Assembly: GCA_963721455.1 (NCBI GenBank)
Contig: CAVRJG010000046.1
Coordinates: 26,719 to 90,718, forward strand
Reading direction: 5' to 3'
Length of the DNA: 64,000 bases
Source: an uncultured Methanosarcinaceae archaeon
GTDB taxonomy: Archaea > Halobacteriota > Methanosarcinia > Methanosarcinales > Methanosarcinaceae
Each line of letters begins with the position of its first letter. Within the stretch, counting starts at the first letter, position 1. Position numbers and translations under genes: made by a program. Below the pieces are notes generated by a model. It had not been told where the DNA came from and ran no database searches. It worked only from the letters and a program-made list of their open reading frames with translations. Below are positions 45,407-50,341 of this stretch, one piece after another.

Positions 45407-47332
45407 TTAATAAAAGTCCAGATTTACACCCTTCTGGTCGAGTACCTTTTTCAACTCTTCGTAAGCCGTGAAAAGCTCTTGCTTCTGCCTGCCGACGGTT
45501 TCAAGCCTGGGCTCGGCCTTAAGCCAGATATCCCTCTCCCCGGTCCCTCTCGTGACCGCAACACAGGCAAGCATATCCCCATGGGTCAGCCTGTATATTG
45601 AGTCAAGTCCCGTAGGGGTGACCCAGGCAGGAGAAACGATTTTAAGTTTTTCTATAAGTTCTTTCCAGCTGAGATTTCCCGACGCCCGGAGGTTGAGCTG
45701 GAGGTGGGTACGTTCCCCTGCGACTTTTTCATCAACATTTTTGAGGAAAGTACTGTACTCAGGATCTTTCTCGTTGATCTCTCTTGCTTCATAACGGGAA
45801 AGTTCTTCGGCTTCCTCTTCGAAGAAAGGCGCAAGATTAACCCTGCTTGAAGGTTTTGTCATCAGGGAAATCCCGAAGAAAGCGATAGCACTCAGAGACA
45901 TTCCCACGATAACCCCGTGGCTCATGAGAATCGGGTGAATGCTTTCCAGATAATTGGGGGCCAGAGGGGGCGTTTTTATAAGGTCCAGAACCACAAGGGC
46001 TACCTGAACTGTAAACCCTACTACCATGCCTGCAAAGGCTCCTTCCTTGGTAGCTCGCTTCCAGTACAGGCCTCCCATGAGCGGGAAGAAGTAGGAGGAA
46101 CTTGCAATGAAAGTTGCGATGTGAATTGCATCGATAATATTGGGGATTACAAATGAGCCTGCCGTTGCAGCGAGTATGATAAACAGCACACTGATCCTGT
46201 TTATCAACATCATTTCCTTCATTGTTGCATCTGGCTTTATATACCTCTGGTAAATGTCCCTTGAGATACAGGAAGCTCCTGATGTTGAAAAAGTGTCCGT
46301 ACAGGACATGGAAGCTGCTGCAAGCCCTATTGCACTGAAGGCTATTACCGCGGGGGCAGAGGCGAAACGTTCACTGACAAAGGTCAGGAGTGCGGGCTCT
46401 GCAAGGGCCATGCCTGCAGGAAAACCCATTCCTGCTATTTCAGGATATATGGCGTTGAGGGCTATTGCAATCACAGCGCAGGCTGCAAAGACCACAGTAA
46501 TCATAAGAGAGCCAATTATCATCCCAAGACTGGCAGATTTTCCATCTCTTGCAGCCCAGACTTTCTGCCAGGGGTCCTGCTCGGTAATCCAGCCCGGAAT
46601 TATAGCCAGGATAAAGATCAAAACCATAGGAAGGCCGATTGAGAAGGGATTCCACCAGTCCCCGGATACATTTCCGAAAAGCTCTGAAGCGCTTATCGCA
46701 GTAGTATTGAGGCCTCCATCCGCGACTGTTCCTACTGCGGCAAAAGCTATTCCTACTGCGAAGAGGGCAAGGAAGGAAAACTGGATGACATCCGTCCAGA
46801 TTACTGCATACAGCCCTCCGAGAGTTACGTAAAGGGAAACCGCAACTGCAACAATGGCTGCAGCGTAGAAAGGATCAAGGCCGTAAAAGACCTGCAGCAC
46901 AAGGGAAAGTCCTGTAATGTCGGCTACTGAAAAAAGAATCATTACAACAGTGATGATCAGGGCAATCGGCCATCTGACTATACTGCCGTAGCGCTGTTCC
47001 AGAAGTTCGGGCTGGGTGATTGCAGGCAGGTTTTTGATCTTTCCCACAAGTACGGCAATGATAAGGAGGGCGAGGATATTGGGAGCCACAAATCCCCATA
47101 TAGAACCCATTCCCTGAAGCATATAAAACCCGACAACCGCAAGAATTCCACCGGCTGTCAACCAGGAAGCTGCGGCTGAAAACCCCAGAGCTGAGGGTCC
47201 TATCCTGCGCCCTGCAAGCCAGAAGTCCGTAACGGATTTCTGTCTACTATTAAAATACCAGCCAATAGCAACAAGTCCGGCTATATAAACTGCAAGCATT
47301 ACAAGGAAAATACTGTAACCATCCATATGCAA
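45407..47332 (-). CDS. Sodium:solute symporter family protein
   Basis: DFWLAGR, GGLYAVIWTDVIQ and GLYWKRAT..GA motifs; about 13 TM segments. Confidence 0.9.
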   Translation of the reverse strand: MHMDGYSIFLVMLAVYIAGLVAIGWYFNSRQKSVTDFWLAGRRIGPSALGFSAAASWLTAGGILAVVGFYMLQGMGSIWGFVAPNILALLIIAVLVGKIKNLPAITQPELLEQRYGSIVRWPIALIITVVMILFSVADITGLSLVLQVFYGLDPFYAAAIVAVAVSLYVTLGGLYAVIWTDVIQFSFLALFAVGIAFAAVGTVADGGLNTTAISASELFGNVSGDWWNPFSIGLPMVLIFILAIIPGWITEQDPWQKVWAARDGKSASLGMIIGSLMITVVFAACAVIAIALNAIYPEIAGMGFPAGMALAEPALLTFVSERFASAPAVIAFSAIGLAAASMSCTDTFSTSGASCISRDIYQRYIKPDATMKEMMLINRISVLFIILAATAGSFVIPNIIDAIHIATFIASSSYFFPLMGGLYWKRATKEGAFAGMVVGFTVQVALVVLDLIKTPPLAPNYLESIHPILMSHGVIVGMSLSAIAFFGISLMTKPSSRVNLAPFFEEEAEELSRYEAREINEKDPEYSTFLKNVDEKVAGERTHLQLNLRASGNLSWKELIEKLKIVSPAWVTPTGLDSIYRLTHGDMLACVAVTRGTGERDIWLKAEPRLETVGRQKQELFTAYEELKKVLDQKGVNLDFY

Positions 47333-47397
47333 ACCTTCAAAAAAAATTAAATAATATTTATGAGTCTACTTCTTTTATCGAAACTATGGGTATTATT

Positions 47398-47463
47398 CGT
47401 TTCTGAAATATATTACCGTTTATATATTGCCGTTTCTGAAATATATTACCGTTTATATATTGC
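47398..47463. repeat. Perfect 33-bp tandem duplication containing a TATA-like box
   Basis: cgtttctgaaatatattaccgtttatatattgc occurs at 47398-47430 and 47431-47463. Confidence 0.85.
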
Positions 47464-47832
47464 CATTGTATCGACATACAAATAAATAAACTTTTACTTC
47501 GGTTTATACTGTTTATCTCTCTTTTTGCCGGGGGAATGGCTCTTTTCTTCCTCTCCACGCAAGTTAACTTGAATTCAAATGATCTTTTACTTCTATACTT
47601 ATGAGCGGAAATATTTACACTGCATCCATTACAGAAAAGATTTACACTTTACTGAATTCGCGAGCAAGATTCATTAAAACAAGGATTAAAACAAAATAAA
47701 GCGGGGAGAGCTGAAAGATTTAACCAATAACGAACTTAACCAGATCTTCCAGGATGAAGATGGAAACAAACAGTTCAAAAAATACCGGAACTGGATTATA
47801 GCTATATCAAGAAGTAAGGAGATACCCTATTT

Positions 47833-48045
47833 ATGGTTTTATTGGACGACAGCAAACCATATAAAATAAATTTTAATTTAATTTGTATGAGATGCAAGCA
47901 TTTTCACATAGAGGATGTGAAACTCCATACATGCGATGCGTTCCCGGACGGTATCCCTGATGAAATATGGCGGGGAGACAATGACCATAAAAAGCCGAAT
48001 CCTGGAGATCATGGAATACAATTCGAGCAAATATCACAAGACTAA
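47833..48045 (+). CDS. Small Cys/His protein (CxxC...CDAFPDGIP...[11 protein letters not shown]), cassette 1; putative immunity protein
   Basis: 70-aa ORF preceded by AAGGAG; 52/70 identical to the cassette-3 gene. Confidence 0.75.
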   Translation: MVLLDDSKPYKINFNLICMRCKHFHIEDVKLHTCDAFPDGIPDEIWRGDNDHKKPNPGDHGIQFEQISQD

Positions 48046-48124
48046 AATTTTTTATAGAACATCTTTCATTTACTTATTGCAGTTATCGAAACACTATCCT
48101 GGAAAAATTTCACCCACTTTAAGA

Positions 48125-48180
48125 TAAGGGCCCCTGAGTTGACCGGGGGCTTGGATTCTCTTCCTTTCTCTCTTCTTTTC
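48125..48180 (+). terminator. GC hairpin followed by a pyrimidine tract at the end of cassette 1
   Basis: gcccc-tgagttgaccg-ggggc followed by ttctcttcctttctctcttcttttc. Confidence 0.45.
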
Positions 48181-48222
48181 CGAATTCGCGAGCAAGATCC
48201 ACTAAAACAAGGATTGAAACAC

Positions 48223-48372
48223 ACCGCCGAGCATGAGGTATTATATCAAAAAGGACAGCATTTAAAATTATTAGGAGTTGAAGGAGTTGATAGGGTCGGC
48301 ATGATAGGAGATGACGGCACATGGGTTGCCAGCACAAACAAAATAAGACTGTTATACTGTAAGCTAATTTAA
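48223..48372 (+). pseudogene. 3' stub of a probable ADP-ribosyltransferase-like toxin gene (cassette 2)
   Basis: Begins right after repeat 2 and reads TAEHEVLYQKGQHLKLLGVE...IRLLYCKLI*. The E-x-E-V-L motif plus terminal beta-strands match VIP2/C3-like ART tails. Confidence 0.5.
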
Positions 48373-48436
48373 ACAGATCAACATTATATATACCCGAATC
48401 GTCCTGGAAAGCAGACAAACAGGAGGAAAAGCAGCC

Positions 48437-48577
48437 ATGCCAAAAGATGAGAACGGTCGCGAGATACCGAGCCGGTTTTATATTGATGACGGCGACCTGC
48501 GATTTATTGACGCGGCGCCCTTAACAGAAGAGGACCGGGCCGAGCTTAAGCGTATGAAAGAACTTATGGAAAAATAA
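48437..48577 (+). CDS. 46-aa acidic small protein (cassette 2); putative antitoxin
   Basis: AGGAGG RBS at 48421-48426; MPKDENGREIPSRFYIDDGDLRFIDAAPLTEEDRAELKRMKELMEK*. Too short for the ORF track. Confidence 0.65.
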   Translation: MPKDENGREIPSRFYIDDGDLRFIDAAPLTEEDRAELKRMKELMEK

Positions 48578-48733
48578 AGGATTTAAAGAAGTGAGTACAG
48601 GAGCGCGAAAAAACAGTGGAAGAATTAAACTTTAAAAAGTATTCGGAAGAGACATTCGCGAGCAAGATCCACTAAAACAAGGATTGAAACCTGAACTACT
48701 CATTTATCAAGAAGTAAAAGGGATATTATACAT

Positions 48734-48946
48734 ATGGTTCTATTAGATGATCGCGAATTATATAGGATCAATTTTAATCTGATTTGTATTAAATGCAAGC
48801 ACTATCACATAGAAAATACAAACCTCAACTCCTGTGATGCGTTCCCGGATGGGATCCCGGATGAGATCTGGAGGGGGGACAATGACCACATAAAACCGTA
48901 TCCTGGGGATCACGGTATCCAATTCGAGCCGGAAGAAGAAGACTAA
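48734..48946 (+). CDS. Small Cys/His protein, cassette 3; homologue of the cassette-1 gene
   Basis: 70-aa ORF with [23 protein letters not shown] and [11 protein letters not shown]. Confidence 0.75.
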
Positions 48947-49189
48947 AATTGTTTATAGAATATCTTTCATTTATTTGTTGCAGTTATTGAAACACTATCC
49001 TGGAAAAATTCTACACATTTTAAGAATTCGCGAGCAAGATCCATTAAAACAAAGATTAAAACGTAATCCTTTTTTAAGATAATTTCAGGTTACTTTTTTC
49101 AGTTTCTTTTATTTTTGCAGCTTCTAATGGTTAAAAAAGATTTATTATGCCTTTAATTTCTATTTTCTTCCAAAATATTACTTTTTTAA

Positions 49190-50341
<1,152 letters not shown>

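Follow-up and report, generated by a model that had tools for sequence, protein, structure and literature searches.

We analysed a 64,000-nucleotide (nt) stretch of DNA from an uncultured Methanosarcinaceae archaeon (hereafter the window) and found that positions 47656-49062 of its plus strand hold the remnant of a CRISPR array, in which four 37-nt repeats surround three units, each about ten times as long as a normal spacer. Two of these units carry a gene for a 70-amino-acid (70-aa) protein, preceded by the tail of a viral head gene. The interpretation that we favour, with moderate confidence, is that the array is now an orphan, and that these two units were taken up in separate, adaptation-type captures from two related viruses. 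The genome of the window is referred to below as G000, and the other genomes, loci and proteins compared are referred to by G, L and P codes.

The repeats R1 (47656-47692), R2 (48184-48220), R3 (48654-48690) and R4, the degenerate terminal copy (49026-49062), all lie on the plus strand and exceed the gathering score of 37 bits of the Rfam family CRISPR-DR7 (RF01320), with 43, 56.5, 56.5 and 41.1 bits, respectively. The 37-nt repeat, of which four copies were found, gave no match in 100 shuffles and folds weakly (-3.1 kcal/mol). R2 and R3 have the same sequence, from which R1 and R4 each deviate at 3 of the 37 positions. The intervening units, namely unit 1 (47693-48183), unit 2 (48221-48653) and unit 3 (48691-49025), measure 491, 433 and 335 bp, and depart from the uniform spacing of about 30-45 nt that typifies CRISPR arrays. 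Indeed, when 17 regions from 12 other genomes of the genus were surveyed, 16 of them held arrays, and 868 of the 897 intervals were 30-49 nt long. The nearest species, G045, carries a regular array at the identical site, with 25 perfect repeats and spacers of 34-40 nt; the sequence immediately before its first repeat aligns at 88% to positions 47272-47651 of the window, and R4 is orthologous by its flank to the degenerate last repeat of that array, which adjoins the same transporter gene. The locus in the window is a true CRISPR array.

We call this array an orphan because profile searches of G000 gave no match to PF01867, PF09827, PF01881, PF01905 or PF03787, covering the Cas1, Cas2, Cas6, Cas7/DevR and RAMP families, while the Methanosarcina acetivorans control was positive each time. 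The CRISPR-associated (cas) genes are likely absent from G000. Furthermore, no evenly spaced array was found in this genome, and its repeat-like copies number only 18, on 7 contigs, several of them with long intervals in between. Further orphan remnants with long intervals lie on its contigs C33 (49242-52114) and C64 (62-726). One remnant interval holds a minus-strand open reading frame (ORF) that is cupin-like by eye only, with a gene for a large secreted protein on the opposite strand; this interval recurs, with 83% conservation, next to arrays of G028 and G024, pointing to an old structure. In G045, the Cas1 matches on contigs C13 and C48 are split and contain TAG or TAA stops, which may mean that the cas1 genes are in decay or that TAG encodes pyrrolysine there.

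We then compared the contents of units 1 and 3 with viral DNA. Unit 1 opens with a 3' stub of about 41 codons of a Mu-F-like minor head gene (47693-47817), followed by the first copy of the 70-aa gene (47833-48045), and unit 3 opens with a stub of 8 codons plus stop (48691-48717), followed by the other copy (48734-48946). Both proteins match phrog_33375 over residues 16-69 (E 5.9e-9 for copy 1 and 3.2e-9 for copy 3). Since the stubs themselves are too short for a profile test, the full-length upstream genes in native contexts were used instead. In L132, a metagenomic contig carrying the relative P0004, the 511-aa minor head protein matches phrog_115 (E 1.4e-18), the head gene ends in AGELQGLTNEELNGLFQNEAWKQTVETIQALDYSYIKR followed by the stop, and the order is minor head gene, small gene and hairpin; a Mu-F-like parent gene in L015 matches PF04233 (E 1.8e-10). 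In G001 a large terminase gene, a 413-aa gene and a gene for a Mu-F-like protein of 485 aa precede the 70-aa gene. Positions 13-330 of unit 1 align at 72% with L132, a stretch that starts within the head gene and stops where the small ORF ends, and the hairpin region of unit 1 also aligns with L132, where a matching hairpin follows the gene. Given this alignment, units 1 and 3 are contiguous pieces of tailed-virus DNA, and unit 1 is viral from its first base to its last. Searches of the Mu-F-like proteins for a toxin domain found none.

The 70-aa protein is highly conserved rather than hypervariable, and C18, C21, H23 and C34 are invariant in the family. Its relatives number 168 to 343 in a large protein collection and 89 in IMG/VR, and the gene occurs in 10 of the 58 other genomes of the genus, at 12 loci, none of which has CRISPR repeats within 1.5 kb of the gene. 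Searches of Pfam, PADLOC and NCBIfam gave no significant match for the small proteins, the AlphaFold model of the 70-aa protein had a mean predicted local distance difference test score of 72.9, and Foldseek returned no PDB match. In the ESM Atlas the family falls into unnamed, mainly viral clusters, and blastn of 47693-49025 against the GenBank phage collection gave no match. In G050, outside any array, two tandem copies of the gene adjoin a gene for an AMP-binding enzyme (L016, 9805-10311), which implies that the family also duplicates outside viruses and arrays. These data offer a concrete handle on an unstudied, widespread tailed-virus protein that adjoins a Mu-F-like head protein.

The alignment of unit 1 (positions 113-432) with unit 3 (positions 15-335) covers 321 nt at 79.1% identity. 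The initial annotation had regarded the two units as homologous pieces with different end points, and indeed unit 1 reaches beyond unit 3 on both sides, by 98 bp at the upstream end and by 59 bp at the downstream end. Its statements that the two proteins share 52 of 70 residues with many synonymous changes, and that the homology reaches into the upstream stub and into about 75 bp of 3' flank, were likewise borne out. The genes are identical at 160 of 210 bases; the differing codons comprise 22 synonymous and 18 non-synonymous ones, and the base differences number 14, 9 and 27 at the first, second and third codon positions. The proposed comparison of non-synonymous (dN) with synonymous (dS) divergence gave a dN of about 0.14, a dS ranging by method from 0.55 to saturation, and an omega of 0.03-0.26. 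At the level of sequence, this shows that the two copies diverged under coding constraint. The stubs end in LDYSYIKK (unit 1) and LNYSFIKK (unit 3) before the stop and share 20 of 27 bases, with the reading frame kept and the serine conserved through AGC in unit 1 and TCA in unit 3. Since the divergence is codon-wise even in this head-gene stub, which is functionless in the array, it must have arisen in intact donor genomes.

The common non-coding 3' flank (48046-48124 in unit 1 and 48947-49025 in unit 3) measured 79 nt, of which 70 are identical, and is better conserved than the third codon positions of the genes (43 of 70; Fisher p = 1.2e-4). Conservation of this flank does not extend to the native contigs L132 and G059, and its likeness between the units could reflect a constrained element, mosaic donors or gene conversion. 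The flank opens with the TATA-like TTTATAGAA. A leader-like nature was considered and rejected, as 12 and 49 of 500 shuffles reached its local alignment score to the leader, and an analysis of RNA structure gave z-scores of 0.21 and 1.18, with nothing beyond the hairpin. This GC-rich hairpin of nine pairs, followed by a T-rich run (48128-48152), is found in unit 1 only. It had been described earlier as terminator-like; the hairpin itself is there, but the single terminator-like site is no more than shuffles give (mean 1.3). An 8-nt CRISPR RNA handle, ATTGAAAC, at 48986-48993 in unit 3, 32 nt before R4, was taken as chance; unit 1 has ATCGAAAC there, and no other part of the repeat is present.

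A third capture, for which the donor is in hand, came to light when 160 loci, viral and metagenomic, were retrieved with the 70-aa protein as query. In one metagenomic array, represented by the two records L135 and L137, the 70-aa gene lies inside a CRISPR array of the same repeat family. The L137 array has more than 80 repeats, and its gene-bearing interval of 535 nt is made up of a head-gene tail of 83 codons, the small gene and a 67-nt flank; the unit is antisense to the repeats, and the gene has lost its start through a 1-nt insertion. Over its full length the unit is 100% identical to the provirus contig G059 (L038) and to L136, both of which are free of repeats at this stretch. The virus bases that adjoin the leader-proximal end of the piece are TTA. 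Furthermore, six regular spacers of the L137 array match G059, and their upstream triplets are TTA in four cases, TTT in one (an 86% match) and CTC in one (a partial match). The 535-nt piece follows the array's own motif at the proper end, as capture by the adaptation machinery predicts. This metagenomic array was the only one for which an acquisition motif could be derived: the 865 regular spacers from the 16 array regions of the genus had no match in G000 or in the viral loci fetched by then, their only matches being in L021, a second copy of the same G045 array. No close donor turned up for units 1 and 3, so that the sequence on their motif side is not readable and a TTA beside them is putative.

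Unit 2 has the same build, with the open tail of an upstream gene (48223-48372, 49 codons) followed by a complete 46-aa gene (48437-48577), which is preceded by AGGAGG and belongs to a family of small Methanosarcina proteins with the pattern ..SRF..PLTEED.. (hereafter the PLTEE family). The 46-aa protein has eight relatives at 64-89% identity and a 47-aa homologue in G035, and a search of IMG/VR found no viral relative of the family. The PLTEE family occurs at 32 places in 22 of the 59 genomes; CRISPR repeats lie nearby in 8 of the 30 loci fetched, and in all four loci checked the repeat stands upstream of the gene and on its strand.

Oversized spacers with genes, bounded by perfect or near-perfect repeats, were also found in the arrays of other genomes, the inserts overall measuring 179-553 bp versus the usual 30-45 bp. 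Between perfect repeats, G002 holds a unit of 482 bp in which GGAGG precedes an 87-aa gene, and G009, a complete single-contig genome, holds a 553-bp unit with a 95-aa ORF. The array of G014, with 102 repeats, contains five units of 179, 311, 482, 483 and 264 bp, each with a sense ORF of 48-87 aa; two of them start at the same point, end at different ones and are 94.7% identical, and three encode relatives of the unit 2 protein (hhalign probability 83.9%, E 7.7e-6). One unit of the G014 array matches the G002 unit at 97% identity over 469 nt, again from the same start, although the neighbouring spacers did not align between the arrays of the two species. The arrays of G014 (contig C91), G002 (contig C57) and G009 adjoin intact cas1 genes. 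No relatives of the 87-aa family were found in IMG/VR. Other long intervals in the survey were not counted, as they involved a second repeat type, leader copies, an element within a repeat, or old chains of degenerate repeats with cellular genes. The element within a repeat is in G001 (L128, 9087-9328), where a CRISPR repeat is interrupted by some 130 bp that have terminal inverted repeats (GAGCCTATCCGAAAAGT...) and an ACTAA duplication; it looks like a miniature transposon. As a post hoc observation, 5 of the 11 oversized spacers examined have GA as their last two bases, versus 7.9% of 934 regular ones; together with the first bases of the following repeat this GA gives GAATTC, as also happens at the leader/R1 junction.

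All of the 11 oversized spacers contain a whole small ORF, in the sense orientation in ten, whereas random windows of 335-535 nt from three provirus contigs contained a whole ORF of at least 40 aa in only 7-26%. This excess fits a reading that would be compatible with, and lie on top of, the capture mechanism and that we regard as possible, if tentative: the arrays would serve as platforms that capture whole small genes of mobile elements. The leader would drive their transcription, Cas6, in genomes that have it, would excise them at the repeats, their usefulness to host or element would preserve them, and recombination between repeats would pass them from array to array; the two 70-aa copies would be selected variants. 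Two gene families indeed recur in arrays, the 70-aa family three times and the PLTEE family in unit 2 and the three G014 units, and the proximity of PLTEE loci to repeats and the nearly identical 87-aa cassette in the arrays of two species point the same way. So does the state of unit 1, in which the ORF is intact whereas the head-gene stub is frameshifted by a 1-nt deletion, relative to the native gene, between 47759 and 47760. The counts are, however, not free of bias, as part of the sample comes from searches with these same genes: the metagenomic case was found by the gene, the G014 array was reached through its similarity to the G002 unit, and the 87-aa units of these two genomes are not independent. 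Moreover, no RNA run containing the stretch was listed, and no function was matched for any of the proteins. The initial annotation had proposed repeated selection for variants of the same gene, and selection for the 70-aa gene is plausible, given that the ORFs are intact and in sense and that units of this kind hold whole small genes more often than expected. The antisense 535-nt unit with its lost start codon argues against repeated selection, and repeated capture would also be expected from primed acquisition around a conserved target.

The 535-nt unit also bears on an unlikely origin of such units, by recombination between spacers and protospacers, in which the array would have held two ordinary spacers from sites a few hundred bases apart in one virus, and repair or recombination with that virus would have replaced the stretch between them by viral DNA. 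This would give exact junctions and a motif-adjacent leader-proximal end, as seen in that unit, and several regular spacers of the L137 array do target the same provirus. However, the distal end would then be expected to carry the trace of a second spacer, and no TTA was found 33-41 nt from the distal end of the unit, only TTC (at 37 nt) and TTT (at 38 nt). The whole genes and the sense bias would likewise remain unexplained.

We next consider whether units 1 and 3 stem from one capture or two. A single capture, with the unit then duplicated within the array, the copies diverging where they stood and unit 3 trimmed on both sides, is improbable. It would agree with the finding that the two 70-aa copies are the best matches of each other in the 59 genomes (74% identity versus at most 61%), with the 89% identity of the 3' flank, and with the G014 pair of units that share a start. 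The cargo, however, is 21% diverged between the units, whereas R2 and R3 are identical, as the initial annotation had pointed out when it called the repeats much less diverged than the cargo. The host flanks of the array are about 88% identical in nucleotides to those of G045, which is free of the units, and differ from this nearest species by only about 12%, less than the units differ from each other. In addition, duplication in place would leave the codon-wise divergence of a functionless head-gene stub unaccounted for, and would need two deletions, each stopping exactly at an intact repeat.

A comparison with database homologues points in the same direction. P0002, a protein from an environmental assembly, is 81% and 80% identical to copies 1 and 3, respectively, versus 74% between the copies (54, 53 and 51 identities over 67 common positions), so that the two copies are not each other's closest relatives. 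In a tree of the 70-aa proteins (57 rows kept, those under 60 aa dropped), copy 1, copy 3, P0002 and P0004 form a common clade with support of 97/92, although the tree did not settle the branching order inside it; copies 1, 3 and P0002 look like three lineages from one point. Separate acquisition is also supported by end points that differ on either side of units whose bounding repeats are intact, and by the third, independent capture of this virus locus in the L137 array. Two separate captures from two related tailed viruses, as the initial annotation had suggested, are the best-supported account of these data, while its addition that the gene was repeatedly selected stands as plausible only.

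Finally, a misjoining of viral contigs to CRISPR repeats by the assembler is hardly credible, because, although G000 is a draft of 73 contigs and repeats are classic assembler break points, the junctions of unit 2 with R2 and with R3 are bridged by contigs of other metagenome runs (records 4, 12 and 26), and the same architecture occurs in the complete genome G009 and in several other assemblies. The contigs of these other runs cover unit 2, the leader and part of unit 1 (a 258-nt contig with 12 differences); unit 3 is without cover among them.

Several points weigh against our reading of the locus as an orphan array with two separate viral captures. The absence of cas genes from the draft genome depends on its completeness of 98.5%. 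The mutual best matches of copies 1 and 3 within the 59 genomes were mentioned above, and no donor above 81% protein identity was found for units 1 and 3. The likeness of their 3' flanks beyond that of synonymous sites could mean that some gene conversion took place between the units. R1 and R4 share two substitutions that are absent from R2 and R3 (CACT>CATT and TTGAAAC>TTAAAAC), which implies recombination in the history of the array; two repeat subtypes may have recombined to give it, and CATT is what the repeats of the metagenomic array L137 normally carry. Furthermore, the excess of whole ORFs in the sense orientation means that simple error-prone capture is insufficient, and that added selection, for units expressing a useful small protein, or another mechanism, such as a non-random supply of fragments, is needed. 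We know of no biochemical precedent for the insertion of 300-550-bp fragments by Cas1-Cas2, and a search of the full-text literature, with subscription journals and supplements outside its scope, yielded none.

We thus propose the following course of events for the captures. On this reading each unit is a single contiguous foreign piece, in which a gene tail precedes a complete small gene that points the way the array is transcribed, and units 1 and 3 are overlapping captures of one head-morphogenesis stretch from two related tailed archaeal viruses, comprising the 3' end of the Mu-F-like gene, the phrog_33375 gene and downstream non-coding DNA. The adaptation machinery (Cas1-Cas2) would have inserted the fragments at the leader-proximal repeat, duplicating the repeat, with the TTA motif anchoring one end of an over-long fragment whose opposite end escaped trimming. 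Of the two captures, that of unit 3 would have come first and that of unit 1 later, and priming by unit 3, as a partial match, could have brought the return to the same locus. The captures would have preceded the loss of cas genes in the lineage, after which normal spacers may have been deleted between close repeats, while units with wide spacing were retained, perhaps aided by selection on their genes.

The array lies between conserved host genes. On its left is a sodium:solute symporter gene on the minus strand (45407-47332; PF00474, E 7.8e-35), and on its right a gene for the solute-binding protein of an ATP-binding cassette (ABC) transporter on the plus strand (49253-50341; PF13531, E 1.6e-34), followed by genes for a permease and then an ATPase with TOBE domains. 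These flanks are syntenic across the genus, and in most of its genomes (e.g. G040 and G001) the symporter and ABC-transporter genes are directly adjacent, without an array. The AT-rich leader, a putative promoter region, occupies 47333-47655 on the plus strand and contains, at 47398-47463, a perfect 33-bp tandem duplication with TATA-like TTTATATA motifs. One of the two 33-bp copies is absent in contigs of two metagenome runs (joint 47393>47425).

Taken together, the data suggest a real, recurrent route for whole genes into CRISPR arrays, because precise, motif-consistent inserts of 0.2-0.55 kb occur in several Methanosarcina species, draw on the same two families and survive the loss of cas genes. 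A molecular ruler is generally taken to set the length of CRISPR spacers, and array finders discard or split arrays at long intervals, so that such units go unseen. In the full-text literature, within the same scope as above, we found no description of virus-derived, gene-bearing spacers of this size; the closest accounts are those of transposon-like long spacers and of viral solitary repeats taken up below. A more speculative extension, to which we give limited credence, is that Methanosarcina arrays act as capture-and-expression sites for small genes of mobile elements, which would be cut by Cas6, be exchanged at the repeats and outlive CRISPR-Cas itself. If true, this would amount to a memory layer at the protein level, for example of dominant-negative virus assembly factors, or to a viral Trojan horse against CRISPR. 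Two questions have thereby been made testable, namely how strict the ruler of archaeal type I-B adaptation is, and whether arrays can act as platforms for gene expression.

Among known systems, orphan toxin-tip/immunity modules lie downstream of contact-dependent growth inhibition (CDI) and Rhs loci, and polymorphic toxins fused to Mu-F domains occur in temperate phages. The units resemble such CDI/Rhs modules in combining the tail of an upstream gene, here Mu-F-like, with a complete small gene and in occurring as diverged variants; they differ in that the stubs span only 8-83 codons and in that the 70-aa protein is conserved, not hypervariable. With integron cassettes they share tandem, promoter-less small genes that are bounded by repeats, served by one promoter region, set in one orientation and partly paralogous. 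The cassettes of the window, however, include tails of neighbouring genes, the bounding repeats are CRISPR-DR7 rather than attC, and the locus is orthologous to a CRISPR array, so that an integron was rejected; an integrase was not searched for.

In the study by Kupczok et al. (2015; PMC4524480), long spacers (at least 100 nt) in bacterial arrays are described as transposon-like in their majority. The window shares with these the rare over-long intervals between intact repeats, but its units are contiguous DNA of viruses or mobile elements, and transposon insertion is ruled out, as the units have no transposase and no terminal inverted repeats. Virus-borne mini-arrays and solitary repeat units, which have been proposed to recombine with host arrays (review PMC8616872), likewise place viral DNA beside CRISPR repeats and invoke recombination at repeats. 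The window array, however, is chromosomal, between conserved host genes, and the native contigs L132 and G059 have no repeats at the unit boundaries, so that this origin was rejected. A mini-array of the CreTA type was also rejected, since it requires degenerate repeats beside cas genes, along with a pseudo-spacer matching a toxin promoter, and G000 gave no cas matches. Finally, ordinary type I-B acquisition (Cas1-Cas2, Cas4), which depends on a motif and takes place at the leader-proximal repeat, differs from the window in that the inserts here each hold a whole gene and no cas genes are left in G000, but it is matched by the exact junctions, the single repeat family, the leader, the viral inserts in units 1 and 3, and the TTA on the leader-proximal side in the one case with a known donor.

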